From the NCBI GenBank assembly GCA_964432485.1, contig CAYSNP010000002.1, positions 6,141 to 70,140 on the forward strand: 64,000 nt of DNA, written 5' to 3'. This stretch comes from an uncultured Christensenellaceae bacterium. GTDB lineage: Bacteria > Bacillota > Clostridia > Christensenellales > DTU072. Below are positions 3,978 to 25,371 of this stretch, piece by piece. The notes under the pieces are model-generated. The model did not search any database and was not told the DNA's origin. It was given only the letters and a program-made list of their open reading frames with translations. Both the position numbers and the translations under genes were made by a program. Numbering within the stretch: position 1 is the first letter of the stretch; the number at the start of each line of letters is the position of its first letter.

Positions 3978-4904
3978 CTACTTTTTATAATACCTTTGAT
4001 TGCCGCTGGTAGGCCTGCTGGGAAGGGTCATTGCCACTAGTCCTGCTTGCATTGCAGGGTGCAAGTAATTGTCAAAAAAGGCTGCTTTTGACTTTAAGCC
4101 CAACAGTACCATTAATTCATTGGCGCTCATTGGATGCTCTTGGATTGCAAACATTAGCCTCCTTACCCTGTCGCTGGTGTTAAGCAAATGATTGTCTATA
4201 TCGGTTGCAAGCTGTTCAACCGCATTTAATATAGCTTGTAGCATAAACATAATAAAGGGATTAAGGCTGCCTTCGGCACCTGCTAAATCTATAATTTTGC
4301 AATATTCTGCTTTTTGATTTAGCAAAATGCTTTCTATGGGTATAAAAGCAAGAATCGGACGCCAAGCAGCTAAAACTGCGGCAGCCCAAAGCCTAGCTAT
4401 CTTGCCGCTTTCTTTTGCAGGCAACTGCATATATTTTAGACGGTAATGAAAAATACTTGATTTGATAAGCGGGTGCGCACCGCTGTCTTTCCCCCATAAA
4501 AGCAGTTGAGTAACGCTATCGAACATATTGGTTGCAAGTGCTTGTTCATATTGTTTATTGGATAAGCCTGTTATCTTTTTGTATGATTTCAAAAAGTCGG
4601 CCATATTATCCCAAGCTAAAGCAGGCAGCTCCTTATATGCCTTATAGGCATTCTTAACTTCTCTTATTTCTTTAGCCGCTCCCAATACATGCTCCCCATT
4701 GCCTATAGCAAAAACTTGCTCATAGGACAAGCAGTTGCCCTCAAGCGCCAATGTAGAATATATAGCTTGAGCAAGGCTTGCTTCCTTTAGCTTTGGCAAT
4801 TTCTCCAATATCTTTTTATCAGCAATTCTACCAAGTCTTTCTGCTAGCTCAACAGCAAGGGCAAGCATTTCTTCTGTTAAATTAAAAGGGGGCACGCAAT
4901 CCAT
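3978..4904 (-). CDS. Fic/DOC-family protein with a degenerate catalytic motif and a C-terminal winged-helix-like tail
   Basis: The N-terminal TxxxEG segment (TLALEG) resembles the Fic inhibitory-helix motif. The core helix 'IFHYRLKYMQLPAKESGKIARLW' aligns to the 'HyrFe.IHPFxDGNGRxxR' pattern, but His is Gln and GNG is ESG. The C-terminal 'SANELMVLLGL...RPTSGNQRYYKK' is typical of Fic wHTH tails. Confidence 0.65.
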   Translation of the reverse strand: MDCVPPFNLTEEMLALAVELAERLGRIADKKILEKLPKLKEASLAQAIYSTLALEGNCLSYEQVFAIGNGEHVLGAAKEIREVKNAYKAYKELPALAWDNMADFLKSYKKITGLSNKQYEQALATNMFDSVTQLLLWGKDSGAHPLIKSSIFHYRLKYMQLPAKESGKIARLWAAAVLAAWRPILAFIPIESILLNQKAEYCKIIDLAGAEGSLNPFIMFMLQAILNAVEQLATDIDNHLLNTSDRVRRLMFAIQEHPMSANELMVLLGLKSKAAFFDNYLHPAMQAGLVAMTLPSRPTSGNQRYYKK

Positions 4905-4916
4905 TTTTCACCTATT

Positions 4917-6068
4917 TTAATGCTCAATAGTAATATGAAACATTATATCGTCTATTCTTTCATAGATAGTCTTGTAATCAGTTTGCTTTGAGCTATAACA
5001 ATAAGCAAAGTATAACTCCGCCGAATTTGCAGTAGGAAGGAATTGGTATTGCACTTCGGGTAGTACGGATGTTGAAAAAACATAGTTATCCGCATTGTAT
5101 ATTCTAAAATCACCTTGCCCATCAAATCTTATAAAAGCCGCCACGCAGCTATCTACTTGAATACGCCCTCTGCGATGCACAAGAATATTTTCGCTTTCGC
5201 CATTGGTAAAAAAGAACTTTGCTTTTACTTCTTCGATAAAAAGAGGAAGTTCCGGGCGTTGCCATACAGGCAGTGTTACATAATAATCTAAGTGAGTGCC
5301 TAGCTTCATTCCGTAATCAATCTCTATATGGTCAAAATTGTTTATTATTGGGACACTAAGCACAGTATTTATAGTTTGGGTAAAATGTTTTGTATAGCAG
5401 TCGCAAAGAAAACTTGTAATATAATCCCCGTCTTTTGCACGGTTTGGAGCGGTAAAGGTATGCTCCCTTGCTCCTTTTTCTCCTTTGGTCCAATAGCTGA
5501 CAAATAGCATAGGGGTATCCTGCGGCAAAAGCGCTCCGTCACTATACACCTCTGCGCATAGCTTGTATTGCTCCCCCGCTACAATCTCCTCAATTTCGTT
5601 ATTATCTAAATCTTTAATACAAGTCACAACTTGGTCAGGGATACCGCAACTTCTAACATTTACCTCAAATTCTGTAGAGATACAGCCCGACACCCTAACA
5701 ATTATTTTATACTTACCGGGGCGCGCAAACATATAGCCGGAGTATTCTGTTCCCATAGGATGCTTTTCAATAGCCTTAATATACTCCTCGACATAATAAA
5801 TGTAAAAGACAGGGTTAGTCTTGGGCTTTATTGTAAAGGCAACCTTATTAAAATCTATACTGTCAAAGAGAATAAATCCTTCCTCATCAGGTGCGTCAGG
5901 ATTATGGTAATCCTTATTGTAATTGAGCTTGCTTATATCGATAATCGGCAATTCTTGCACCGGTGGCTCTTCCTCCTCAGGCGACTCTGCTTCTCCGAAG
6001 AGATTACAAGCAAATAGCGTTGTTACACATAGCAATAAAGTGCATATAAAGAATATTCTCTTGCTCAT
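4917..6068 (-). CDS. Hypothetical lipoprotein
   Basis: The signal peptide has a lipobox (LLLCVTTLFAC). I placed the start at the ATG at 6066-6068 (MSKRIFF), which has GGGAGG just upstream. It ends 12 nt upstream of the Fic gene, so co-transcription is likely. I recognise no family. Confidence 0.6.
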   Translation of the reverse strand: MSKRIFFICTLLLCVTTLFACNLFGEAESPEEEEPPVQELPIIDISKLNYNKDYHNPDAPDEEGFILFDSIDFNKVAFTIKPKTNPVFYIYYVEEYIKAIEKHPMGTEYSGYMFARPGKYKIIVRVSGCISTEFEVNVRSCGIPDQVVTCIKDLDNNEIEEIVAGEQYKLCAEVYSDGALLPQDTPMLFVSYWTKGEKGAREHTFTAPNRAKDGDYITSFLCDCYTKHFTQTINTVLSVPIINNFDHIEIDYGMKLGTHLDYYVTLPVWQRPELPLFIEEVKAKFFFTNGESENILVHRRGRIQVDSCVAAFIRFDGQGDFRIYNADNYVFSTSVLPEVQYQFLPTANSAELYFAYCYSSKQTDYKTIYERIDDIMFHITIEH

Positions 6069-6239
6069 CAGTCCTCCCAACTCCTGCCCCAACCATATTG
6101 TAACACCTTATATGCTAAATTTCAACTCTAGAAGATTCTCAAATTAATTCAAGTTGGTGTACTAAATAAATCAAGTTTGGTGAGTTTTTGACTGTTTTAT
6201 GCCATTTTACTTAACTCAAATATCCCTTTCTAACCTTAC

Positions 6240-8096
6240 CTATGAAGCGCTTTCAAATTGACTGTTGTATAATTCAGCGTAAAAACCGCCTTTTTCTAGA
6301 AGTTCATTATGATTTCCATTTTCAACAATTTCACCATCTTTCATTACCAAAATTATGTCTGCATTCTTAATGGTGGATAATCTATGAGCTATAACAAATG
6401 ATGTTCTGCCTTGGGTTAGCTTATCCATAGCTTCTTGTATTAAAACCTCTGTGCGCGTATCAACCGAGCTTGTTGCTTCATCTAAAATAAGTAGCGGAGC
6501 ATTTTGTATCATAGCACGAGCTATTGTTAAGAGTTGTTTTTGTCCTTCCGATAGACTGGCCTTATCGCCTAAAATTGTATTATATCCTTCTGGTAAAGTG
6601 CGAATAAAGTGGTGTAATCCTACTGCTTTACATGCTGTTTTTATCTGTTCATCCGTCACGCCTTCTTTGCTATATACGATATTTTCTTTAATTGTTCCTT
6701 CAAAAAGCCAAGTATCTTGAAGCACCATGCTAAATTGTTCGTGAATATTTTCCCGCGTGACCTCATTAATTGGCACGCCATCTATTAATATTTTACCATC
6801 ATCAATTTCATAAAACCGCATAAGCAAATTTACCATAGTGGTTTTGCCTGCTCCAGTAGGCCCAACTATAGCAACTTTTTGGCCGGGATTAATGGTAGCT
6901 GAAAAATCGTTTATAATAGTTTTTTCTTTATTATATCCAAAGCGCACATTGCGAAACTCTACGCTACCTTTTATATTTGATAGTTGCTTAACTTTTTCAC
7001 TTTCATTGACCAGCTCATCTTCTTCAAAAAAATCAAAAACTCGCTCGCTTGCTGCTGCTGTACTTTGCAATCCTTGCGCTGCTTGAGCTATCTGAGAGAG
7101 CGGCTGTGTGAACAATCGCACATATAACATAAAGGCAATAATAACTTCAAAACCAATTGTCCCATTCATTGTAAGCACAGCCCCTACAACACAAACGGCT
7201 ACATAGCCAAGATTTCCTATAAAACCCATAATGGGCATCATAAGCCCGGACATGAATTGAGACTTCCATCCACTTGAAAACAATCGATTGTTTATTTTTT
7301 CAAAAGTATTTTGTGCATTTTTGTTCCCATTATAAACTTTTACAACATTGTGATTTGTATAGATTTCCTCTATATGTCCATTTACATCGCCTAGACTATT
7401 CTGTTGCGACACAAAATACTTTTGAGACTTTGCCATAATTGTCATCATAAATATAAATCCAACAACACTTGCTCCAATTGCTGTTAATGCCATAATCCAA
7501 TTAGTAGCAAACATCATCAGCAACGAGCCTACAAACATAGTAATAGCTGTCACTAAAGAACCAATGCTCTGATTAAGTGTCTGCCCTATGGTATCCACAT
7601 CATTTGTCACTCGAGATAAAACATCTCCATAACTAGTGTTGTCGAAATATTTAAATGGTAGCTTATTAATTTTTTCTGATATTCCCGTACGCAATTTCTT
7701 AGAAACTCTTGCGGTAACAGTTGCCATAATAAAGTTTTGGGCATAGCTTAATATTGCTGAGGATACATATATAACAACTAGTGTTATTCCTATGTTTGTT
7801 ACAACATTAAGATTCATTCCACCCTTAAATACATTCCCTACTTCTTTCATTATACTTGAAATTTTATCCGGGCCTATAACTTGAAGCACAGTGCCCACAG
7901 CTGCAAAAATGAGAGCTACGATAATGGCTAGTAGATAACTTTTAGAATATTTAATTAGTTTTATCCAAGCAACCTTAAAGTTTTTAGCTTTTTCTACAGG
8001 TCTCCCCATGCTTCGTGGCCCTCCACCACCGCCAGGTCCTCGAGGTGTTGGTCTGTTCTCTAGCCGTTCATTGCTTTTTTCTACATATTTACTCAT
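6240..8096 (-). CDS. ABC exporter permease/ATPase, heterodimer subunit with the consensus catalytic site
   Basis: It has a six-TM N-terminal half, Walker A GPTGAGKTT and Walker B LLILDEATSSVD (catalytic Glu present), but an atypical signature LSEGQKQLL. The RBS is GAGGAGG. The start overlaps the upstream stop (ATGA). Confidence 0.9.
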   Translation of the reverse strand: MSKYVEKSNERLENRPTPRGPGGGGGPRSMGRPVEKAKNFKVAWIKLIKYSKSYLLAIIVALIFAAVGTVLQVIGPDKISSIMKEVGNVFKGGMNLNVVTNIGITLVVIYVSSAILSYAQNFIMATVTARVSKKLRTGISEKINKLPFKYFDNTSYGDVLSRVTNDVDTIGQTLNQSIGSLVTAITMFVGSLLMMFATNWIMALTAIGASVVGFIFMMTIMAKSQKYFVSQQNSLGDVNGHIEEIYTNHNVVKVYNGNKNAQNTFEKINNRLFSSGWKSQFMSGLMMPIMGFIGNLGYVAVCVVGAVLTMNGTIGFEVIIAFMLYVRLFTQPLSQIAQAAQGLQSTAAASERVFDFFEEDELVNESEKVKQLSNIKGSVEFRNVRFGYNKEKTIINDFSATINPGQKVAIVGPTGAGKTTMVNLLMRFYEIDDGKILIDGVPINEVTRENIHEQFSMVLQDTWLFEGTIKENIVYSKEGVTDEQIKTACKAVGLHHFIRTLPEGYNTILGDKASLSEGQKQLLTIARAMIQNAPLLILDEATSSVDTRTEVLIQEAMDKLTQGRTSFVIAHRLSTIKNADIILVMKDGEIVENGNHNELLEKGGFYAELYNSQFESAS

Positions 8097-17133: not shown

Positions 17134-17460
17134 CTAAAGGCACAATTCAAAAACATCCTCAAAGAAAATCTTATTGTTATCTATCGTAATATATTTAAAG
17201 GGCAAGTTTTTTTCGTTTACTTGTCCGCTAAAGGTGATATAGTGACCGTTGCGGTAAAAGGTAACGGTAACGCTTGCGCCTTTTTCTAATTTTTGCAGTA
17301 TTAAAGAAAGTTTTGCTTTTTGCTCTTCGGATAGCTCGCTTTTTTGCACTCTTGCCAGCTTTTGCTCTTTTGCCCTTAACGCTTCTTGCAAGCCTTTCAT
17401 TGCATCAAAGGGCATAAATTGGGCGGCTCTGCTTGCTTTATTCACTGTTATGCCCTCCAA
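17134..17460 (-). CDS. YolD-like protein
   Basis: It is a small protein beginning 'AAQFMPFDAMKGLQEAL'. It lies immediately downstream of the Y-family polymerase gene and overlaps it by 23 nt, which is the arrangement known for B. subtilis uvrX-yolD and yqjW-yqjX. Confidence 0.7.
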   Translation of the reverse strand: MEGITVNKASRAAQFMPFDAMKGLQEALRAKEQKLARVQKSELSEEQKAKLSLILQKLEKGASVTVTFYRNGHYITFSGQVNEKNLPFKYITIDNNKIFFEDVFELCL

Positions 17461-18697
17461 TTTGTGTATTTCTTATCCTTGCTGTGGCATCCGCTTGCAA
17501 GTCCATTGCCCTAAGCATAGCGTTTTTGCCAAACTTATCTTTAATGTACAGTGCCGCTTGCTCGCATCTTTTTTCTTTTTCTATACGCTCAAAATCGGTA
17601 AAAAAGTCATAGCCTTCGCATTCTTGCCCGCAAAGGTTGCCAAAAGAGATAGATAACCGCCTGATAGGTATATTTTTTATGGCGGTCTTTTCAAAAAGCT
17701 CTTTAACATAGCCGCTCACTATAGAAAATATATTGGTAACCTCCGCCATTCTGGCAGAGCCGCCCGTAGGAGGGTGCGCCTCTTTGGAGTAGCCTATCCC
17801 CAGCCATATATTGCGGGTAACAAGCCCTTCCCTTAACATTTGTTGACAGCCGGCAAGCGCCATTTCCTGTATTACCAAGCTTGCCTGTTCAAAAGAATAG
17901 TCTTTAAGCAATATTTGTGAGTTAGAAATAGATTTGCTTTTGGTTTTATACGCTTTAACATCCGCTATGGTGCAGCTTTCTCTGCCCCAAGCATGGTCTA
18001 TCAACAGTTCTGCATTAATGCCAAAAGTCTTATACAACAGTTGCTCAGGCGCAAGTGCCACCCCTTTCATATCGGTTATGCCAAAACGGGCAAGCCTTGC
18101 CGCTGTGCCTCTTGCCACTTGCCAAAAATCGGTTATGGGCCTATGTTCCCAAAGGGTTGCCCTATACAGCGGCTCATTAAGGTAGCCCATATGCTCTTTG
18201 GACTTTTTTGCGGTAATGTCAAGCGCAATCTTTGCCAAATATAAGTTAGTGCCTATGCCTACCGTAGAGGGGATATGTAGCCTACGGGCAATTTCGTCCA
18301 CTAATTTGGCGGCAAACTCTTTAGGGGTTAAATTGTATACCCTAAGATAGCTGGTGGCGTCTATAAAGGACTCGTCAATGGAATAAGTATGAATATCGTC
18401 CTTGCTGATATAGTTAAGATAAATCTCATAAATATCTGCCGCATACTCTATATATTTGCTCATTCGGGGCTTGGCGGCAATATACTTAATATAAGGCGGA
18501 ATCTCAAATAAGCGGCATCTGCCGCCCACTCCTTGCGCCTTTAATTTCGGGCTAACCGCAAGGCATAACGCTCCCTTGCCCCTGCTTGCATCCGCTACCA
18601 CCAAATTGGTTTCAAAAGGATTAAGCCCGCGCTCGGCGCACTCCACAGAAGCATAAAACGCCTTCATATCAATACAAAAATATGTCCTTTGCTCCAT
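17438..18697 (-). CDS. Y-family (UmuC/ImpB/UvrX-like) translesion DNA polymerase
   Basis: The N-terminus 'YFCIDMKAFYASVECAERGLNP' and the motif 'SIDESFID' are characteristic of Y-family polymerases. It is preceded by a LexA-box promoter. Confidence 0.88.
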   Translation of the reverse strand: MEQRTYFCIDMKAFYASVECAERGLNPFETNLVVADASRGKGALCLAVSPKLKAQGVGGRCRLFEIPPYIKYIAAKPRMSKYIEYAADIYEIYLNYISKDDIHTYSIDESFIDATSYLRVYNLTPKEFAAKLVDEIARRLHIPSTVGIGTNLYLAKIALDITAKKSKEHMGYLNEPLYRATLWEHRPITDFWQVARGTAARLARFGITDMKGVALAPEQLLYKTFGINAELLIDHAWGRESCTIADVKAYKTKSKSISNSQILLKDYSFEQASLVIQEMALAGCQQMLREGLVTRNIWLGIGYSKEAHPPTGGSARMAEVTNIFSIVSGYVKELFEKTAIKNIPIRRLSISFGNLCGQECEGYDFFTDFERIEKEKRCEQAALYIKDKFGKNAMLRAMDLQADATARIRNTQIGGHNSE

Positions 18698-18783: not shown

Positions 18784-18984
18784 TGGTCTGCCACTGGGAA
18801 ATATTACAAGCAAGCTGTTAAAAAGTCATTGTTCCTTGTACTACTTACTTTCACTCAAGCTGTGCTGTTGCGATATATCAGATTGCAACTTGATAAAAGA
18901 TATTTTTGGCAAAATACCCTTGTTAATCGGCTCGACGCCAGAAAAGTTATTGAGAAATCCATTAGCCTGCATTCTGCCCCCATT

Positions 18985-19746
18985 CTATCTTTTATATGTC
19001 TTCATAAGCAAAAAATTCGGCTTATCTAAATCTTTTTCATAATGGGGTAACCGCTTGATTGTTTCTTCCGTCGGTACGGTTTCAATCATCCTTTCGATTA
19101 CAAAGCCATTATCTATAAGCGCATTTACTATTTCCGAAAATGGTCTGTGATACTTTATGACTTTATCGACAATCCATGCGGTGCTACGCTGTCCACTTCT
19201 CATATAGCCCATGAGATTGTAATGCATTACATTTCTATTTTTATCCCTCGTCCAACTTGCCCCGGCAGGCGGTGCTGTCGTAAGAGGATGCTCCTGCGAA
19301 AATATGAAAACGCCACCCTCTACAAGTATTCTGTTGACACTTGCCACAAAATTGTCAAAATCCTTTATATAATGTACCGCCAGCGAACTAAATACGACAT
19401 CAAAGTGTCCGTCAACGTGGGACAAATCGCTCATATCAGCACTAACAAACTCAATCCCTATATTCTCATTTTTAGCGACCTCAAGCATCTTTTCGGATAT
19501 ATCAATCCCTACCACTCTTGAGGCTCCGAGGCATTTAAATTTAGCACAGTTTTCACCATAACCACAACCGAGATCAAGTACGGCTTTACCTGTTAAATCC
19601 GGTGCAAGCGAAAAGAGTGCGAGCTTTTCTTCGAGGATATTGGCACTGTCGGGATTGTCGCGCAACTTTTTATATCCATCAAAAAATGTTTTATTATCGT
19701 AGATGTTCTGCGAAGGGTTCTTTAATTTATCATCATCGATCATCAT
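18985..19746 (-). CDS. Class I SAM-dependent methyltransferase
   Basis: Motif I is VLDLGCGYGEN. I placed the start at the ATG at 19744-19746 (MMIDDDK), which has GAGGAGG 6 nt upstream. The longer ORF in the track lacks an RBS. Confidence 0.8.
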   Translation of the reverse strand: MMIDDDKLKNPSQNIYDNKTFFDGYKKLRDNPDSANILEEKLALFSLAPDLTGKAVLDLGCGYGENCAKFKCLGASRVVGIDISEKMLEVAKNENIGIEFVSADMSDLSHVDGHFDVVFSSLAVHYIKDFDNFVASVNRILVEGGVFIFSQEHPLTTAPPAGASWTRDKNRNVMHYNLMGYMRSGQRSTAWIVDKVIKYHRPFSEIVNALIDNGFVIERMIETVPTEETIKRLPHYEKDLDKPNFLLMKTYKR

Positions 19747-19928
19747 TTTATGCCTCCTCATTGTAGAAATGCATTCGTATATATTATAGTTATTTAGTTG
19801 ATTTGTCAATACAAATAGACTAATTTAGTTATCACTAAAAAAAGCACTCCACTGCTATGAAGTGTGCGATTAGCATATAGCTATCCACAGAGCAGAGCAA
19901 CTTAAAGGCTATTTTCTTTCAAAAGGTA

Positions 19929-19958
19929 TTGTTAAAATTACTCACTTAATGCTATACT
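19929..19958 (+). promoter_or_regulatory. Possible promoter for the 20174-22085 operon
   Basis: TTGTTA (19929-19934), an 18-nt spacer, then TATACT (19953-19958). If used, it implies a roughly 210-nt leader. Confidence 0.3.
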
Positions 19959-20173
19959 AATAATATGTTTTTTAGTTTGAGGTTAAATGTGAAGTTAAGG
20001 ATGAGTTCAAGACACCAAGATTAAAAACAATTACCTTTCAGCAGTACGAAAGAGTGCCACGGATAATATAAATATAAAGACATTGATAAAATTGCTTTAA
20101 AAGACAAAATCAATGATGTCAGTCCATCACAATTTTGTTGCGATGGCTACGAAAGTAATGCATGGAGGACTAA

Positions 20174-20764
20174 ATGAAGAAAACCTTATTGATAGATATT
20201 GATGATACCTTAATTAATAGTTTTGAACTTCCAATAGTTAATCAATTTTTGGGGACGAATTATGGGGAAGAGGACTTTAAGAGCTATATTCAGGAGATTT
20301 TCACCGACCCTAGCGAAATGGAGCGGTTTCATGAATTTTTATTCACTCAAAAAGTATATGGGGATGATACAATAAAGGTAAAGGATGATGCCATAAGAGT
20401 TGTGAAGAAACTAAGCAAAGCATATAGCGTCTACCTATGTTCTGATTACACCTTTTGGCAAAAACCTTGGGAGTCTGATAGATTTTTTGTTGAAAAGTTT
20501 CATTTTCTTAAAAGGCATTTTAATTTCATAAGTCCCTTGCAGCATATTTTTTTGAAAGAAAAGCAATTATTGCAAGCAGATATTATGATTGATGATAGAA
20601 TTGAAAATTTTGGAGAAAACATTAGACAACGCATATTGTTTTCAGCTTATCATAATAAAACGATATCATCCGACGAGCTAAGAGACCGCGGGATAATAAG
20701 AGTCGACACGTGGTCGGACATAGAAAGTTTGTTGCTTGACGGTAAAAAGAGAGGTGACAATTAA
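20174..20764 (+). CDS. HAD-superfamily 5'(3')-deoxyribonucleotidase-like protein (NT5C/YorS-like)
   Basis: HAD motif I is IDIDDTL and motif IV is IMIDDR. 'ILFSAYHN' and 'RVDTWSDIE' match the pattern I remember for NT5C-family proteins (ILFTAPHN, RVNNWEEV). The RBS is GGAGGA. Confidence 0.65.
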   Translation: MKKTLLIDIDDTLINSFELPIVNQFLGTNYGEEDFKSYIQEIFTDPSEMERFHEFLFTQKVYGDDTIKVKDDAIRVVKKLSKAYSVYLCSDYTFWQKPWESDRFFVEKFHFLKRHFNFISPLQHIFLKEKQLLQADIMIDDRIENFGENIRQRILFSAYHNKTISSDELRDRGIIRVDTWSDIESLLLDGKKRGDN

Positions 20765-20765
20765 C

Positions 20766-22085
20766 ATGGACGCAACGAATGAGAAAGTCTTTATTGCATG
20801 GGGCGGGAACCAACCACTTGCAAAAGCAGTTAGTGAAAAAATATCAAAGTATAAGTTTTCGGCTATTGTAGGCGGAGGTCAAGTTACCGACTTGTATTTG
20901 GGAAATCAGATTTTGACCCAAATGCGTCAATGTACTCAAGCGGTTATTTTGGTACAAAGAACATCTAGTGATAGTAGCAAATACAATTTGAATGACAACA
21001 TGATGTTTGAATGGGGATATTTGACGAGTCAAATGCCACCGAATAAAATTCATGTGTTCCTCATTGACATGCAAGCAAAGCATTTGCCGAGTGATTTGAT
21101 GGGAACGTGGGCTACTGAAATTATACAGAGTAATCGGACAATGGAAGATGTTGCAGAAGAAGTAGCAAGAACATTTCATGCCAATGCCTCAATCCCAATT
21201 GAAGTAAACAAAATGGAAGTTTTGCATACTTGGGAACGAACTAAGCGCCTAATTGAAAATTACAACGAATCTTCAAACATTTCGGATGTGGAAATGGCTC
21301 ACATCCTCCTGCACAGCATTGAAACAAATTATCAATATATGGAGGATGAGTACACTGAAAAAATTCTTAATAATATGAAGCCAATTTCTAATTTACTTGC
21401 ATATGTTGTTCAACTTTTCAAGGTTAATATAACTCTTGTTAGAGAAACAAATCATTTAACAAGTCCAATTGACTTTGATTTATATGAAGAGCTAAAAAGC
21501 ATTTGCAGCAGGGACGTAAACTTCATTGATAAGGATGAAAACCTAAATATGTGGATTCAATTTTACAAGGTTGATCATTTAATAATGTTACATTCATCTA
21601 TTGCAACTAATCCTGAATTGAGAGATGAGGAGAAAAGTCTATATATAAAAAAATCAGTACAAGAGGGAGAGCGGGCGCTTGACATTCTGCAAAAAATCAT
21701 TTCCGAATTTCCAAGGGATAAAAATTATGTGAACTTATTCGTAGGGTATATTCATGGCCATTTACGATATCACTGTTATAGTAAAATCGAGTGTTCGGAT
21801 AAAGCTTCGTACCATAGCAAATTAGCGGTTGATGCTTTTAGAGATTTTTACTTAACATTTAAGCAACTGTTTCCTGGTGATGGATATTTGATTAATCAAT
21901 TCGCACAAACTTACTATTTGGATCTTGCGAGGCATGCAGACTATGTTTCTGATGCAGGAGAACAAATGATGATACGAAGAATGATATCTTCATTTTTGTC
22001 GAAATATCAGCAGCAAGCAGAGCGCCAGCATAAGATATTTAAAAAACTTAAAGATAGGGCAAAAAGAATATTGAAGGATGGATAA
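20766..22085 (+). CDS. TIR-like (COG4271/Cap12-type) domain protein with an unassigned roughly 300-aa alpha-helical C-terminal domain
   Basis: The N-terminal roughly 130 aa carry KVFIAWGG, AVILV, NMMFEWGYL and LPSDLMG. These fit the 'VFIVHG ... AivLlTpDD ... NVifElGyf ... iPSDL.G' pattern of TIR-like nucleotide-binding domains. The ATG at 20766 lies 1 nt after the upstream TAA (20762-20764). The TTG at 20736 in the track is less likely to be the start. Confidence 0.6.
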   Translation: MDATNEKVFIAWGGNQPLAKAVSEKISKYKFSAIVGGGQVTDLYLGNQILTQMRQCTQAVILVQRTSSDSSKYNLNDNMMFEWGYLTSQMPPNKIHVFLIDMQAKHLPSDLMGTWATEIIQSNRTMEDVAEEVARTFHANASIPIEVNKMEVLHTWERTKRLIENYNESSNISDVEMAHILLHSIETNYQYMEDEYTEKILNNMKPISNLLAYVVQLFKVNITLVRETNHLTSPIDFDLYEELKSICSRDVNFIDKDENLNMWIQFYKVDHLIMLHSSIATNPELRDEEKSLYIKKSVQEGERALDILQKIISEFPRDKNYVNLFVGYIHGHLRYHCYSKIECSDKASYHSKLAVDAFRDFYLTFKQLFPGDGYLINQFAQTYYLDLARHADYVSDAGEQMMIRRMISSFLSKYQQQAERQHKIFKKLKDRAKRILKDG

Positions 22086-22562
22086 AGCCGAGTAAAAAGC
22101 CGCTGAAATTATTAAGGGCTGAGCAAAAAACAGTAAATATACATAGAAGAAAAACCAAGCATAATTAAAAAGCGGCTAGCTTATTTCAGCGGGCTACTAG
22201 AGAGGATAAATGTTGAGAAAAACGGTTACCTTGAGTTAGCATTAAAAAATGATATTATGCTACATCTTGCCTTTGGCGTTCTTAATTACAGCGGTCGTTA
22301 AGTCAAAAGGATAATCCACATAGCTATCCGTCAAGCATTCCTGAATCAAAAGAGAATTAATATTTTTTAGTGATATTGCTTACGCAATGATATTGACCTA
22401 TCAACTTGACAGGGGTAGATAACCTACCGGTCAATGATATTTTTGCTAAAGCAAAAATGATATTATATTTTTCTTTAACTTGACTTGAAAAGGCAAATAT
22501 CATTCACGAAGTGAATACCATTGCGAAGCAATAGCACTTTTCCGCAAGGAAAAATATAATTG

Positions 22563-22600
22563 AAAAAGAGTTGAATTTCAGAGAAATTCAACTCTTTTTT
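22563..22600. terminator. Bidirectional rho-independent terminator
   Basis: AAAAAGAGTTGAATTTC-AGA-GAAATTCAACTCTTTTT forms a 17-bp stem flanked by an A-run and a T-run. It directly abuts the 3' end of the tRNA (minus strand) and closes the plus-strand region. Confidence 0.75.
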
Positions 22601-22676
22601 TGGTGGAGATAAGGGGACTTGAACCCCTGACCTATGCGTTGCGAACGCATCGCTCTACCAGCTGAGCCATATCCCC
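22601..22676 (-). tRNA. tRNA-Ala (anticodon CGC), CCA encoded
   Basis: The reverse complement is GGGGATATGGCTCAGCTGGTAGAGCGATGCGTTCGCAACGCATAGGTCAGGGGTTCAAGTCCCCTTATCTCCACCA. It folds as a cloverleaf with a 7-bp acceptor stem, the G3:U70 alanine identity pair, anticodon loop TTCGCAA and T-loop TTCAAGT. Confidence 0.95.
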
Positions 22677-22716: not shown

Positions 22717-22840
22717 GAGAATTAAGAGAAACCATAGGTGGAATATTAAAAAATCGCAGACAAGTTTGCTTTAGCACCAATTGCAATCAGCAGGTAAATA
22801 TGTTATGATTATTTTAAGATTATATGCACGGCGGACATCA

Positions 22841-23271
22841 ATGAAAGGTATAAAGATAATAAGCGTTTTTTTAATTCTGGTGCTTTTGACTTCATTATGC
22901 AGTTGCTCCAGAAGAGTATTTTATAAAAGAAAAGATATAGAAAGCGTATCTTTCCGCTTAGCGTATCCTGATGCTACAATCTTGGAAGAAGATGACATTA
23001 CAGACCCTGAGGTTTTAGATGCTGTTAGCAAAGCCCTTAAAAGGCTAAACTTTAATCGTTATAAACCTTGGGGCAATATCTGGACCTTGGAACGCTATGA
23101 CTATATAAAACCGCAATACTGTCACATTATGAAAGTAAAACTAAAGAATATGGCACTATTGTATATAGTATTGACCAAGAGAATAAATGTTACAGCATGG
23201 AAGGCTATAGAAATTACTCCAAAAATGGAGAGAAATTAGTAGAAGTAATGGAGCAATACTTTGCAGAATAA
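22841..23271 (+). pseudogene. Small lipoprotein family, copy 1, interrupted by a -1 frameshift near 23141-23148
   Basis: MKGIKIISVFLILVLLTSLCSC (lipobox) followed by FYKRKDIESVSF matches copies 2-4. After 'HIMKVKLK' the family-conserved C-terminus (EYGTIVYSIDQENKCYS...GEKLVEVMEQYFAE*) continues in the neighbouring frame to the TAA at 23269-23271. The ORF-track frame ends at 23239 with unrelated residues. Confidence 0.65.
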
Positions 23272-23317
23272 AAGCTGGTAGCTTTATTTGTTGAAAGGCG
23301 GCAGGAGAAATAATATT

Positions 23318-23749
23318 ATGAAAAGTAAAAAAGCTCTTTGTATCGTTTTAATCTTGGCAACCTTATTGTCATTTAGCGGGTGTGCAAAAACAGGTTTATT
23401 CTTTAAAAGAAAAAATATAGATAGCTTATACTTTCAGATGTCGCTAAAAAATGGGACTGTTGTAAGTGAAAATGTTACAGATCCGGAAGTAATAGATAGA
23501 GTTTATGATGTTCTTAAAAAAATAAAGTTTAATAATAAGCGGCCTAGAAACAATATATTGTCAGGAGAAAAATATACTTATTACGCTCCCGCAACTTATC
23601 ATATTTTAGGGATAAACACCAAAAAGAATGGCACCTTGAATCTAGAAATTGATATGCATAACAGATGCTTTGTAACTACTGATTACAGAAGACACTCTAC
23701 AGCGGGAGAAGAGCTTGTTGAAATTATGACAGAGTATTTTGATACATAG
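23318..23749 (+). CDS. Small lipoprotein family, copy 2
   Basis: The ATG at 23318 has AGGAGA 9 nt upstream. Lipobox LSFSGC. Family motifs: FFKRKNIDSLYF, TDPEVIDRVYDVLKKIKFN, YH, RCF, ELVEIMTEYF. Confidence 0.8.
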   Translation: MKSKKALCIVLILATLLSFSGCAKTGLFFKRKNIDSLYFQMSLKNGTVVSENVTDPEVIDRVYDVLKKIKFNNKRPRNNILSGEKYTYYAPATYHILGINTKKNGTLNLEIDMHNRCFVTTDYRRHSTAGEELVEIMTEYFDT

Positions 23750-23852
23750 TATTGACATTGCTTTGCAATCTTTACAATTATTCTTTTCTTTTTTCAAAAA
23801 GACCAGAAAGTCTTTATAATAATAGCAAATCTTTCTTTAAAGGAGAACTAAT

Positions 23853-24395
23853 ATGAGTAAATATGCAATTATTGTAGTGGATATGCTCAATGACTTTGTA
23901 ACCGGAGCATTAGGCTGCGACAGAGCAAAGGAGATTGTGCCTGCTAATGCCAAACTAATCCAAGCGGCAAGAGCTAAAGGTATCCCGGTGATTTATTCTA
24001 ACGACAGTCACCTTAAAGGGATAGACCACGAGCTAAAGTTTTGGGGAGACCACGCTATAAGAGGTACTTACGGAGCTGAGGTTATACCTGAACTTGCACC
24101 TACCGATATAGACTATATTGTTCCTAAAAGGAGATATAGCGGCTTCTTTCAAACTGATTTGCTTATTTTGCTACAAGAGCTAAAAGTAAACACTTTAATT
24201 GTTACCGGACTGCATACACATATGTGTTGCAGGCACACTTGCGCAGATGGTTATTGCTACGGCTATAAGATAATTGTCCCCAAGGATGCCACCAATGCCT
24301 TTACAGAAGAAGACTACCAATCAGGACTAAAATATCTTAAAGAAGTTTATGATGCTACTATTACCACTGTTAGCGAGTTAGTTAAAAAGTTTTAA
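23853..24395 (+). CDS. Isochorismatase-family cysteine hydrolase (nicotinamidase/PncA-like)
   Basis: IIVVDMLNDF supplies the catalytic Asp, VPKRRYSGF the Lys, and TGLHTHMCC the Cys. The RBS is AAAGGAG. Confidence 0.8.
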   Translation: MSKYAIIVVDMLNDFVTGALGCDRAKEIVPANAKLIQAARAKGIPVIYSNDSHLKGIDHELKFWGDHAIRGTYGAEVIPELAPTDIDYIVPKRRYSGFFQTDLLILLQELKVNTLIVTGLHTHMCCRHTCADGYCYGYKIIVPKDATNAFTEEDYQSGLKYLKEVYDATITTVSELVKKF

Positions 24396-24404
24396 GCTAC
24401 TTTA

Positions 24405-24433
24405 TTGCTAATATAGCTAAAATGTGCTATATT
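24405..24433 (+). promoter_or_regulatory. Promoter placed so that lipoprotein copy 3 would be leaderless
   Basis: TTGCTA (24405-24410), a 17-nt spacer, then TATATT (24428-24433). Only 6 nt (AAATAA) lie before the ATG at 24440, and there is no purine-rich RBS. Confidence 0.4.
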
Positions 24434-24439
24434 AAATAA

Positions 24440-24883
24440 ATGAAAATCAAAAAGATTCTTTATGTAAATCTAGTATTAATATTGATAGGTAGCTTGCTGA
24501 CTGCTTGCGGTAGACAAGGTGTTTTTTTCAAAAGAAAACATATAGAAAGCATAGATTTTTACTTAATTTCTAACAACGTTATTATAAAAGAAGCCAAAAA
24601 TATTAAAGATAAAGAAACTTTAGATGCAATTTATAAAGTGCTTAAAAACATAAGGTTTAATAAAAAATTCTCTGATTCTGCTATAAGTGAAGGTCTGAAT
24701 GAACCTGAAACCTATTATGTATTAGATGTAAACTTAAGAGAAAATTATGGCTTATACTCTCTGCATATTTCAGAGGCAGGAAGATGTTTTAACTATAAGG
24801 ACAAAGGTTATGAATATTTTTCTCTGTCAGGGGATAGATTATTAGAAATAATAGAAAACTATTTTGAGCAGCAGGAATCATAA
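24440..24883 (+). CDS. Small lipoprotein family, copy 3
   Basis: Lipobox LLTAC. Family motifs: FFKRKHIESIDF, LDAIYKVLKNIRFN, RCF, LLEIIENYF. Confidence 0.8.
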   Translation: MKIKKILYVNLVLILIGSLLTACGRQGVFFKRKHIESIDFYLISNNVIIKEAKNIKDKETLDAIYKVLKNIRFNKKFSDSAISEGLNEPETYYVLDVNLRENYGLYSLHISEAGRCFNYKDKGYEYFSLSGDRLLEIIENYFEQQES

Positions 24884-24915
24884 CATATGAGATTAATACT
24901 TAGAAAGGTAAAAAT

Positions 24916-25371
24916 ATGAAATTAAAGAAACTGATATGTGTTGTTTTAGCGTTGGCTATCCTATTTTCGCTTGTAGGATGCAACCGTAAATGGGCTAACT
25001 TTAAGAAAGATAAAATAGAAAGCCTGAGTTTCGAGTTGGAATATCCTAATGGGGTAACAAAATCTGATAGCGATATTACTGATCCCAAAGTTATCAGTGA
25101 TACATATCAAATGTTGCAGAAAATAAAGTTCAATAAGAAATTACCAAAAAGAGAAAGCATATGGCATAATATAGAAATTGTTTACGAGGAGCCCGCTGTG
25201 TACCATACTTTAAGCATTAAGCTAAAAGACGGAGGGCATAAATTTTTATATATAGATAGCAAAACTAATTATTGTTACAGCCCCGGCGAATATAGGATAT
25301 ATTCTGACTCCGGAGAGCAGGTACTGGCTGTTATGGTAAAATATTTTCAAAATAAAGAAGAGTCAAGCTAA
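24916..25371 (+). CDS. Small lipoprotein family, copy 4
   Basis: Lipobox SLVGC. Family motifs: FKKDKIESLSF, TDPKVISDTYQMLQKIKFN, YH, YCY, VLAVMVKYF. The RBS is GAAAGG. Its 3' end overlaps the convergent ABC ATPase gene by 9 nt. Confidence 0.8.
   Translation: MKLKKLICVVLALAILFSLVGCNRKWANFKKDKIESLSFELEYPNGVTKSDSDITDPKVISDTYQMLQKIKFNKKLPKRESIWHNIEIVYEEPAVYHTLSIKLKDGGHKFLYIDSKTNYCYSPGEYRIYSDSGEQVLAVMVKYFQNKEESS

Follow-up and report, generated by a model that had tools for sequence, protein, structure and literature searches.

TIR enzymes are central to bacterial, plant and animal immunity, and every characterised TIR protein of the Cap12/Pycsar type is, to our knowledge, an immune effector that is activated by a cyclic-nucleotide sensor domain. 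In Cap12/TIR-STING and in Pycsar PycTIR this sensor is a STING, SAVED or cNMP-binding domain, and the partner is a CD-NTase or a pyrimidine cyclase. Within the 64-kb stretch of DNA analysed here (the window), we found a gene, gene 2, whose product belongs to the same TIR subfamily by the PF10137 HMM and has the same fold, and by analogy would be expected to cleave the N-glycosidic bond of NAD+ with a conserved Glu. Its catalytic domain is joined instead to a conserved, family-specific helical solenoid of 300 aa, and its partner, in place of a cyclase, is an NT5C nucleotidase encoded by gene 1. The wider gene-2 family is tied to ordinary nucleotide-metabolising enzymes both by operon and by fusion.

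Three further groups of systems invite comparison. BcTpr, of the B. cereus BcTir/BcTpr pair, was reported to be a phage-defence NADase that produces a cADPR isomer and needs its TPR part, and its core is frequently found by itself or beside variable partner genes (bioRxiv 10.1101/2023.05.26.542521). It combines an N-terminal Rossmann-like N-glycosidase with C-terminal helical repeats in 415 aa, a layout similar to that of gene 2 (439 aa), and, compared by description, both have their catalytic Asn and Glu at a spacing of four residues (N82/E86 in BcTpr, N78/E82 in gene 2). However, the N-terminal domain of BcTpr is described as MilB-like (deoxyribohydrolase superfamily), whereas that of gene 2 matches TIR models only, and BcTpr is paired with a TIR protein that is catalytically dead (BcTir) rather than with a nucleotidase; the NT5C gene is the sole co-directional partner of gene 2, and a BcTir-like TIR-only neighbour is absent. 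Thoeris also has a TIR enzyme in a small operon, and its signal-plus-sensor logic is mirrored by neighbours with RyR domains, a cADPR-binding domain type (PMC13232231), in other loci of the gene-2 family, but ThsA (SIR2-SLOG or Macro) is absent from the window and the gene 2 TIR domain is of the PF10137 type, not ThsB_TIR. Defences that deplete nucleotide pools (dCTP deaminase, dGTPase and PNP-type ATP nucleosidases) would share the logic that we propose below, nucleotide starvation of the phage; they have no homology to the pair, in which two activities are split over two proteins. A literature search found no link of NT5C to TIR defence, and by PADLOC and the literature the pairing appears to fit no named system, as an initial annotation of this DNA had supposed.

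Gene 1 (20174-20764, + strand) is a 196-aa ORF, and gene 2 (20766-22085, + strand) encodes 439 aa from an ATG at 20766 inside an enclosing ORF at 20736-22085; the N-termini of homologues back this start. The TAA stop of gene 1 (20762-20764) and the ATG of gene 2 are 1 nt apart, just as had been noted, and the two genes are thus translationally coupled. Inspection of the sequence located ribosome-binding sites for both genes, GGAGG at 20164..20168 (+), 5 nt ahead of the gene 1 ATG, and AGAGGTG at 20750..20756 (+), within the 3′ end of gene 1. The 364-bp intergenic region before gene 1 contains a candidate sigma-70-type promoter at 19929..19958 (+; TTGTTA, 18 nt, TG-TATACT), which on a consensus scan has 9 of 12 consensus matches plus an extended −10 TG and is a weak pattern match only. 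The scan also returned a further candidate at 20083-20110.

The surroundings of the pair are largely as the initial annotation had described them. A prophage-type uvrX/yolD pair and a tRNA gene had been given as its borders; genes for YolD and IMS (a Y-family polymerase) lie upstream at 17134-18697 (− strand) and tRNA-Ala(CGC) downstream at 22601-22676 (−), but a class I SAM methyltransferase gene that had gone unmentioned (18985-19809, −) separates YolD/IMS from gene 1. The downstream spacer, 22086-22600, is indeed free of ORFs of at least 50 aa and carries several short inverted repeats, together with a match to the Gut-1 RNA. The pair had also looked AT-rich, and its GC content, 0.349, lies below the window mean of 0.391 (sd 0.024) and at the 7th percentile of stretches of equal size; the difference is modest, however, and the low-GC stretch, from about 19.5 to 25.5 kb, is wider than the pair. 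The ORFs lying up to about 5 kb away (15-27 kb of the window) include no CD-NTase or PycC cyclase, ThsA or Sir2, again as stated earlier. Other neighbours in the window are ABC transporters, lipoproteins and an isochorismatase. We read the pair as an accessory two-gene operon, probably acquired by horizontal transfer.

The N-terminal domain of gene 2 (residues 1-139; 20766..21182, +) had been assigned to the Cap12/PycTIR group of TIR-like domains, and profile and structure searches bore this out. Residues 7-117 matched CAP12-PCTIR_TIR (PF10137; E=1.3e-10, 41.8 bits, cut-off 24.7), and the motifs KVFIAWGG (7-14), AVILV (59-63), NMMFEWGYL (78-86) and LPSDLMG (107-113) are present. Searching the PDB with the family profile to E=10 returned the TIR-STING/Cap12 structures 7un8 (E=1e-4) and 9lmq (E=7e-4) and no other convincing match, and Foldseek likewise placed TIR-STING (7un8, 9lmq) first, followed by SARM1 and plant TIR domains. 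The predicted catalytic residue, Glu82, sits inside N78-x-M-F-E82-W-G-Y, with glycine loops at W12-G-G-N15 and G36-G-G38. In the profile alignment, the family motif NLMFEWGY lies against NVVFEFGL of 7un8 and 9lmq, so that E82, which is invariant across 33 family members and the distant fusions, falls on the Glu of FEFG in Cap12/TIR-STING, the catalytic residue of those proteins. Residues F9, W12, G36, G37, N78, E82, G84, Y85 and G113 are invariant up to the most distant members. We rejected an NDT/MilB-type domain, since NDT, DNPH1, MilB and LOG were all absent from the PDB profile matches to E=10, and no NDT, DNPH1 or MilB identity appeared among Pfam matches at E≤0.1 or the top 50 Foldseek matches. 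We also rejected membership of PADLOC PDC-S35, on which a literature search found nothing: the match is weak and partial (residues 3-134 on profile positions 116-251 of 264; E=4e-6, 24.7 bits) and reflects shared TIR-like similarity in a different architecture. NCBIfam gave no useful match to a known defence system, and gene 2 had no match in PHROG.

The rest of gene 2 (residues 140-439; 21183..22085, +) had been read as all-helical and free of recognisable motifs. It has no match in Pfam, NCBIfam or PHROG, and the AlphaFold2 model predicts an all-helical, 12-helix alpha-solenoid (pLDDT 94.7, pTM 0.89). Foldseek found no significant match to this domain, with LapB, LGN and 14-3-3 proteins best at E≥0.013 and TM≤0.41; the modelled fold is weakly TPR/14-3-3-like and seems to lack a counterpart among solved folds. 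A profile search of 1.84 billion representatives returned 161 matches, nearly all of them proteins of 430-480 aa in which the domain covers about residues 140-450. With few exceptions the domain follows some 140 aa of N-terminal sequence, and this part proved to be a TIR domain in eight of ten sampled representatives and additionally, by sequence only, in a fusion protein described below (P0206). The idea that the solenoid is a swappable sensor carried by other effectors was therefore rejected; it is essentially confined to a place behind a gene-2-type TIR domain. Conserved positions include H183, E186, Y189, M192, D257, W263, Y383, Y384 and H422. Mean pairwise identity across phyla is 55% for the TIR domain and 41% for the helical domain (r=0.85). 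The helical domain is conserved and not diversifying, unlike the usual sensors of phage proteins.

Gene 1 is, as first suggested, an NT5C-type HAD protein. It matched Pfam NT5C (PF06941) over profile positions 4-178 of 180 (E=8.3e-19, 68.6 bits, cut-off 24.8) and contains DIDDTL (residues 8-13), IMIDDR (137-142) and ILFSAYHN (154-161). The HAD catalytic motifs are complete, with the D8-x-D10-T nucleophile/acid of motif I, the conserved Lys and the DD metal site, and a PDB profile alignment placed K130 and D139-D140 on LTRDKTVVSADLLIDDR of an mdN-type chain. Among solved 5′(3′)-deoxyribonucleotidases the matches were to 3bwv from Staphylococcus (E=6.5e-6) and to human mdN/cdN (about 1e-3); PHROG returned phrog_420, of unknown function (E=2.8e-15), and PADLOC nothing. 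Gene 1 thus has the full signature and catalytic residues of housekeeping and phage NT5C enzymes (human cdN/mdN, 3bwv, phage NT5C-like proteins), whereas its own subclade is known solely beside the TIR-solenoid gene. Its next relatives occupy NT5C-thyA-folA-tmk operons, a setting that makes dUMP or dTMP plausible substrates. Operons of the thyA-folA-tmk kind are typically housekeeping.

The pair recurs in four independent lineages that are about 60% identical (window/L023/L080, L003/L071, L069/L070 and L002/L024). What flanks the pair varies between them, from a SAM methyltransferase, an AraC regulator or an acetyltransferase to ParE with a FecR-like protein; two gene orders occur through one inversion, and the intergenic gaps are 1-18 nt. 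Both genes diverged in parallel, with gene 1/gene 2 identities of 57.5/62.3, 59.0/61.4, 61.0/60.0 and 52.4/59.9%. With P0083 left out, all gene 1 homologues more than 50% identical whose contigs were examined adjoin gene-2 homologues. These results establish the pair as a genuine co-inherited cassette in a few gut Clostridia, limited to one clade. The expectation that the two genes would be found together in other genomes was thus borne out in these lineages but not beyond them: about 60 further, more distant gene-2 homologues, from at least eight phyla and mostly from gut MAGs, have no NT5C gene beside them.

Among 185,579 species genomes, 20 carry the gene-2 family, scattered over at least eight phyla that share gut habitats, and its neighbourhoods are varied. 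RyR-domain proteins are the commonest specific neighbour, in about 12 loci, and come in two types. The first, of 620-780 aa, has two or three N-terminal transmembrane helices, TrkA_N and a C-terminal RyR domain and, judged by this domain composition, looks like a ligand-gated membrane effector; the second is an RyR protein of about 100 aa followed by a DHH phosphoesterase. Other neighbours are Pfam TIR_2 proteins with TPR, LRR or Sel1 repeats. One subclade, in a single related set of loci (L017, L048/49, L051 and L052), lies among the purine-salvage genes punA, xpt and hpt, which exceed their NCBIfam equivalog cut-offs (382/218, 234/177 and 183/150 bits, respectively), together with a gene for a CDA-fold deaminase. 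Elsewhere, an IU-nucleoside hydrolase gene overlaps downstream of a gene-2 homologue (L079), one homologue is fused to a xanthine-PRTase-like (Xpt-like) domain (P0094), and another TIR-solenoid protein is fused to an HAD_2 phosphatase with DxDxT and DD motifs (P0206, locus L078). The last is a singleton contig, and we treat it as supporting evidence only. In Propionibacteriaceae the homologue stably adjoins argG, in three independent loci a family member adjoins a tRNA gene, and a truncated copy lies beside a resolvase gene. None of the roughly 65 family loci has a CD-NTase or PycC cyclase as a conserved neighbour. The initial annotation had asked whether gene-2 homologues lie in defence islands; of 138 genes neighbouring them, few match PADLOC models. 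A viral origin was rejected, with no relative in IMG/VR contigs and none found by tblastn against phage and plasmid records.

The two enzymes very likely share one nucleotide pathway, and the cassette probably breaks down NAD+ or nucleotides. Defence is a plausible role, and the reading that we prefer, tentatively and at somewhat less than an even chance, is abortive-infection-type defence by triggered NAD+/nucleotide depletion, with a gene 1 that is predicted to be active and would have been recruited from an NT5C lineage of thymidylate metabolism. Gene 2 would be a TIR N-glycosidase in which Glu82 most likely splits NAD+ at the nicotinamide-ribose bond and yields ADPR or a cyclic ADPR-type molecule, and its solenoid may govern activation or oligomerisation. 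The gene 1 enzyme, translated from the same transcript, would add a second catalytic activity, removing phosphate from mononucleotides (dNMPs and possibly NMN) and so keeping the depleted pool from being rebuilt. The identities of the two enzymes, the operon layout and the co-inheritance of the pair favour this reading. The HAD and PRTase fusions and the IU-nucleoside hydrolase, as independent nucleotide-enzyme partners, argue for such depletion. Conflict-type signals point the same way, namely the rarity and patchiness of the family, the tRNA-adjacent loci, the resolvase-adjacent truncated copy, the RyR-domain and repeat-bearing TIR_2 neighbours, and toxin–antitoxin and restriction–modification genes in one pair locus (L002), as does the analogous glycosidase-plus-TPR architecture of BcTpr (bioRxiv 10.1101/2023.05.26.542521). 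Against it stand the many family loci that lack NT5C, the scarcity of PADLOC matches, window neighbours that form no defence island, the absence of copies from phage, plasmid and viral-contig collections, the good conservation of both domains where phage sensors typically evolve fast, the stable argG neighbourhood, and the salvage and thyA-folA-tmk settings of some relatives. Nor is any NT5C enzyme known to use ADPR-type products. If the cassette is defensive, it would represent depletion by two enzymes and would bring in a novel type of partner, a phosphatase of dNMP/NMN that could block the rebuilding of the pool.

A serious rival, unlikely as we judge it, is that the pair is a module for nucleotide/nucleoside salvage and catabolism instead of immunity. 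Gene 1 would turn (d)NMPs into (deoxy)nucleosides. The Glu of gene 2 would act on the N-glycosidic bond of nucleosides or nucleotides, by cleavage or exchange, and free bases for phosphoribosyltransferases, while the solenoid would serve in allostery or oligomerisation, as such domains do in regulated nucleosidases. The initial annotation had held that homologues in conserved nucleotide-salvage operons would speak against a defence module, and such settings were found for part of the family, in the punA/xpt/hpt subclade of gene 2 and in the thymidylate operons that house the relatives of gene 1. The equivalog-level salvage partners and the CDA-fold deaminase favour this rival, and so do the hydrolase partner and both enzyme fusions; the many invariant polar residues and high conservation of both domains across phyla, the scarcity of known defence genes nearby and the stable argG synteny fit it as well. 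However, the salvage setting is that of a single group of related loci and may represent a single ancestral insertion, and the N-terminal domain matches immune-type TIR domains only. For a metabolic enzyme, the family has a very rare and patchy occurrence, the RyR, TIR_2 and DHH neighbours are no salvage genes, and a purine riboswitch or other known leader, which would have favoured salvage, was found neither in 20 related loci nor in the window. If this rival were correct, gene 2 would be the first TIR enzyme known to us that serves nucleotide salvage as a housekeeping function, and the interpretation of TIR matches in genomes would change.

We consider it rather unlikely that the TIR-solenoid protein is the core of an undescribed, modular family of NAD+/nucleotide-based immune systems of gut anaerobes with interchangeable partners (NT5C/HAD phosphatase, xanthine PRTase, nucleoside phosphorylase/hydrolase, RyR plus DHH, and RyR-domain membrane channels). 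The host nucleotidase would then destroy NMN/dNMP intermediates that the phage needs, a built-in counter to phage NAD+-reconstitution pathways, and in sister versions the TIR product might gate bacterial RyR-domain channels, mirroring cADPR and ryanodine receptors in animals. The RyR neighbours of the sister genes offer a route to asking whether host RyR domains sense TIR products.

The same neighbours bear on an explanation that we regard as improbable, Thoeris-like signalling, in which gene 2 would sense infection and make a cADPR-type signal with no depletion of NAD+, the effector would be encoded elsewhere, and gene 1 would be an off-switch that processes or clears a nucleotide by-product or the signal. 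Here the frequency of RyR proteins and the resemblance of some to ligand-gated membrane effectors, with others preceding a DHH phosphoesterase, would be accounted for. RyR domains bind or cleave 2′/3′ cADPR (PMC13232231, a 2026 preprint). Yet the 64-kb window has no RyR-domain ORF, and the four NT5C-paired lineages have neither an RyR domain nor another recognisable sensor-effector beside the pair. cADPR isomers contain no phosphomonoester, which leaves NT5C nothing to remove from such a signal.

A toxin–immunity pair, in which gene 2 would be toxic through NADase or nucleosidase activity and gene 1 would neutralise its product or keep it silent in the manner of an enzymatic antitoxin, is very improbable: the tight coupling with the small gene first, the toxin–antitoxin neighbours in L002 and the flanks that vary between lineages would suit it, but the roughly 60 homologues without NT5C or any constant small partner indicate that the TIR protein is not obligatorily toxic, and fusion of a phosphatase or PRTase into one polypeptide suits consecutive catalysis better than antagonism. 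Chance adjacency of two unrelated genes, suggested by the absence of NT5C beside most family members, is effectively refuted by the co-inheritance data, namely retention in four lineages whose proteins have diverged by about 40%, with flanks that differ and one inversion, correlated divergence, short gaps, the gene-2 neighbour of every examined gene 1 relative above 50% identity and the independent HAD fusion.

The SAM methyltransferase was rejected as a third component and is treated as a coincidence, because the copies found upstream in the window and in L078 are just 20% identical and no such gene accompanies the pair in the other three lineages. A 333-aa ORF in an insertion in L023 has no PDB relative. 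L002 carries HigB with an HTH protein, ParE and an MmeI-type restriction–modification gene and, about 3.7 kb upstream, a Guanylate_cyc gene; L024 has upstream genes in common with L002.

Gene 1 (positions 20174-20764, + strand) is an open reading frame of 196 aa, and gene 2 (20766-22085, +), read from an ATG, encodes 439 aa. The frame of gene 2 extends upstream to a TTG at 20736, and the N termini of its homologues favour the ATG at 20766. A single nucleotide separates this ATG from the TAA of gene 1 (20762-20764), as the initial annotation had described, and each start codon is preceded by a good ribosome-binding site, GGAGG (20164-20168) for gene 1 and AGAGGTG (20750-20756) for gene 2. All motif strings that it had cited were found in the two translations. 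Profile searches bore out the proposed families: gene 1 matched the Pfam model NT5C (E = 8.3e-19), and residues 7-117 of gene 2 matched CAP12-PCTIR_TIR (E = 1.3e-10), each far over the curated cut-off. The remaining 300 aa of gene 2, in which no motif had been recognized, gave no match in family-model searches.

An AlphaFold2 model of the whole gene 2 protein was confident (pLDDT 87.8, pTM 0.82). Searched against the PDB, the family profile retrieved only Cap12/TIR-STING structures, placing NLMFEWGY opposite NVVFEFGL, and Foldseek ranked TIR-STING first for the N-terminal domain, followed by SARM1 and plant TIR domains. Because no nucleoside deoxyribosyltransferase, MilB, DNPH1 or LOG enzyme appeared among the PDB profile or Foldseek matches, we set aside the related deoxyribohydrolase class and assign the domain, on profile and model evidence, as a true TIR of the Cap12/Pycsar family. 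E82, W12, G36, G37, N78, G84, Y85 and G113 are invariant even among the remotest members. The most probable chemistry is a predicted N-glycosidic cleavage of NAD+ by E82, to our knowledge the sole activity known for this TIR subfamily. Modelled by itself (pLDDT 94.7), the C-terminal domain is a 12-helix solenoid whose likeness to TPR and 14-3-3 proteins is weak (E = 0.013 for the best match, TM ≤ 0.41). It includes a clade-specific segment, H-G-H-L-R-Y-H-C, spanning residues 329-336. A profile search of 1.84 billion representative proteins returned 161 relatives of this domain, nearly all of them 430-480 aa long and carrying it between about residues 140 and 450. The same TIR formed the N-terminal partner in eight of ten members sampled by Pfam; of the other two, P0206 has a TIR domain by sequence inspection only and P0226 showed none. 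This near-uniformity in size, position and partner suggests that the TIR-solenoid architecture is largely fixed, not a shuffled sensor. Both domains are strongly conserved (mean pairwise identity 55% and 41%, r = 0.85).

The gene 1 protein aligns with solved 5'(3')-deoxyribonucleotidases (3bwv, human mdN and cdN) and retains the HAD catalytic set D8, D10, K130, D139 and D140, which places it by sequence in the NT5C family. Its next-nearest relatives are the products of two genes, one 45% identical and close to tmk, the other 36% identical and part of an NT5C-thyA-folA-tmk operon; gene 1 therefore appears to come from a nucleotidase lineage of thymidylate metabolism and to have been recruited as a partner of the TIR gene.

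We gathered roughly 80 loci (L numbers), about 70 of them with a gene 2 homologue; full-length homologues fall into about 79 clusters. Conserved co-localization held in four lineages with differing flanks but was restricted to one clade, and roughly 60 other loci lacked NT5C. The lineages are the window with its near-identical contigs L023 and L080; L003/L071, from an Oscillospiraceae MAG, where an AraC regulator gene precedes the pair; L069/L070, where the pair lies between an upstream acetyltransferase gene and a downstream tRNA; and L002, where NT5C lies downstream and convergent. Upstream in L002 (1687-6650) are genes for a Guanylate_cyc-domain protein (583 aa), a FecR-like protein (921 aa) and a ParE toxin. 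The FecR-like and ParE genes are shared by L024 (1639-4812), a contig that stops within the TIR gene, before the NT5C position. L002 additionally carries HigB with an HTH protein, as well as a downstream restriction-modification gene of MmeI type. Intergenic gaps within the pair are 1-18 nt, and the percentage identities of genes 1 and 2 shift jointly (57.5/62.3, 59.0/61.4, 61.0/60.0, 61.6/73.9 and 52.4/59.9). All relatives of gene 1 above 50% identity whose contigs were examined (a set not including P0083) adjoin gene 2 homologues. The pairing is real and limited to one clade.

Members of the gene 2 family are rare, occurring in 20 of 185,579 species genomes, and their hosts are a scattered set of Oscillospiraceae, Propionibacteriaceae, Bifidobacteriaceae, Eggerthellaceae, spirochaetes, Planctomycetota, Bacteroidia, Cloacimonadota and Dehalococcoidia. 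Several named MAGs with a homologue derive from samples of animal gut, goat jejunum for example, and many others are, judging from sample names, taken to be termite-gut assemblies. No member was found in viral, phage and plasmid collections. One short metagenomic contig (L025, 363-2568) carries two homologues in tandem. In L072, a solenoid-only copy of 259 aa (4224-5003), with 82% nucleotide identity to window positions 21210-22079 and a serine resolvase gene about 850 bp away, is probably a truncated remnant of a rearrangement.

Among the loci collected no neighbour was universal and several were recurrent. RyR-domain proteins occur at about 12 loci in two forms. In the first, a RyR protein of about 100 aa precedes a 500-aa DHH/DHHA1 phosphoesterase (L028 2221-4082, L029 1684-2356, L048 4087-7093); a TIR_2 protein precedes the L048 module, and the DHH gene stands alone in L001 (9351-10853). 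This module may be a separate unit for handling TIR signals. The second form, of 620-780 aa, starts with two or three transmembrane helices, contains a TrkA_N domain and ends in a RyR or RyR-like domain (L010 11848-13854, L018 1590-3566, L036 7382-9733, L038 2488-4341, L045 1780-3945, L047 1090-3024, L067 1346-3298), with TrkA_N assigned by Pfam in the one member scanned, and RyR clear by HMM in three and by BLAST clustering in the others. These proteins resemble membrane proteins that are gated by a ligand, and could serve as effectors under the control of TIR products, since RyR-domain proteins are reported to bind or cleave the TIR products 2'cADPR and 3'cADPR (2026 preprint, PMC13232231). 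Our literature search found no description of host-encoded proteins of this type. Other recurrent neighbours are TIR_2 proteins with TPR, LRR or Sel1 repeats, and large TPR proteins.

One subclade (L017, L048/49, L051 and L052) is embedded among purine-salvage genes (L048 389-4076, L017 593-3558, L051 907-3448, L052 431-3077). Purine nucleoside phosphorylase, xanthine PRTase and hypoxanthine PRTase, all over NCBIfam equivalog cut-offs, occur there with a CDA-fold deaminase, in the orders hpt / gene 2 homologue / xpt and gene 2 homologue / (deaminase) / punA / xpt. In L079, an IU-nucleoside hydrolase gene overlaps the end of the gene 2 homologue. Two fusions act as Rosetta stones: P0094 joins TIR, solenoid and an Xpt-like PRTase in a single protein, and P0206 joins a TIR-like domain and solenoid to a HAD_2 phosphatase that retains its DxDxT and DD motifs. 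On comparison, this HAD_2 domain showed no specific kinship with NT5C, so a phosphatase appears to have joined the family at least twice independently. In four Propionibacteriaceae loci (L008, L011, L013 and L035; Arachnia propionica and three uncultured MAGs), argG, encoding argininosuccinate synthase, directly precedes the homologue, a pattern suggesting that the gene has been inherited vertically and stably at its chromosomal position.

Gene 2 shares its TIR family with CBASS and Pycsar effectors but lacks their cyclic-nucleotide sensor domain and cyclase partner. Thoeris was rejected as an identity for want of ThsA, and PADLOC PDC-S35 because the gene 2 match was partial and at the level of the TIR only. 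In layout, gene 2 is like BcTpr, an NADase that joins a glycosidase to TPR repeats and is reported to protect against phage (bioRxiv 10.1101/2023.05.26.542521). We found nothing in the literature that links NT5C with a TIR system. In the pair, a known catalytic module is built into a fixed architecture and set beside a partner, neither of which has been described before. The cassette is real, its family unexplored and its role ambiguous.

Taken by their sequences, TIR-solenoid proteins very likely work with enzymes whose substrates are mononucleotides, nucleosides or ADPR-type molecules; in the pair clade the partner would be a predicted active 5'-nucleotidase on the same transcript. We tentatively favour, at somewhat less than even weight, a triggered system for NAD+/nucleotide depletion, because the TIR domain is of the immune type, the family is rare and patchily distributed, three loci adjoin a tRNA gene, L002 carries toxin-antitoxin and restriction genes nearby, homologues have RyR, TIR_2 and DHH neighbours, and BcTpr offers a parallel. 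NT5C would then be a second catalytic arm that could block NAD+ rebuilding or strip dNMPs. In yeast, NMN and nicotinamide riboside are known to be broken down by HAD 5'-nucleotidases and IU-type hydrolases, which is why a partner of this kind could have the former effect. The main rival, a salvage or catabolic module, is less probable but carries real weight; it draws on the purine-salvage operons, the thymidylate-operon ancestry of gene 1, the strong conservation of both gene 2 domains, the scarcity of known defence genes near homologues and the stable argG synteny. Thoeris-like signalling is a lesser alternative, against which the window holds neither a RyR domain nor any other effector, and an enzymatic toxin-immunity pair is likewise a lesser one. 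Chance adjacency of two genes that recur together under differing flanks is effectively excluded.

The initial annotation had placed the pair between yolD and polymerase genes and a tRNA. YolD and Y-family polymerase genes do lie upstream and a tRNA-Ala(CGC) downstream, but the nearest upstream gene encodes a class I SAM methyltransferase (18985-19809, -) that directly adjoins gene 1 divergently. A methyltransferase also adjoins the HAD-fusion locus (L078 334-1071, +, overlapping, same strand), with only 20% identity to that of the window; none was found beside the pair in the other pair lineages. The AT-richness noted by eye is real but modest (pair GC 0.349 versus 0.391 ± 0.024 for the window, 7th percentile). 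Directly downstream of the tRNA-Ala and its 17-bp terminator hairpin (22563-22599) is a Gut-1 RNA motif (22492-22562, -; Rfam RF01706; 50.2 bits, gathering score 50; whole-window E = 6e-7), and the ORF-free stretch around it holds at least five copies of AATGATATT in both orientations. L023, from a close relative, is 97.8% identical to the window in nucleotides over 18816-22349, and between TIR gene and tRNA-Ala it has a differing 2.7-kb segment (4203-6946) versus about 250 bp in the window (22350-22596); the tRNA-proximal spot is variable. A 333-aa ORF in that segment had no relative in the PDB. Further downstream, four paralogous lipoprotein-like genes of about 150 aa (22781-25371, +; starts at 22781, 23288, 24440 and 24916) each encode a signal peptide with a terminal Cys, after which comes (V/L/N)F(Y/F/K)K(R/K)K.IES. 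An isochorismatase-family gene (23853-24395) lies among them, and the block is throughout as low in GC as the gene pair.
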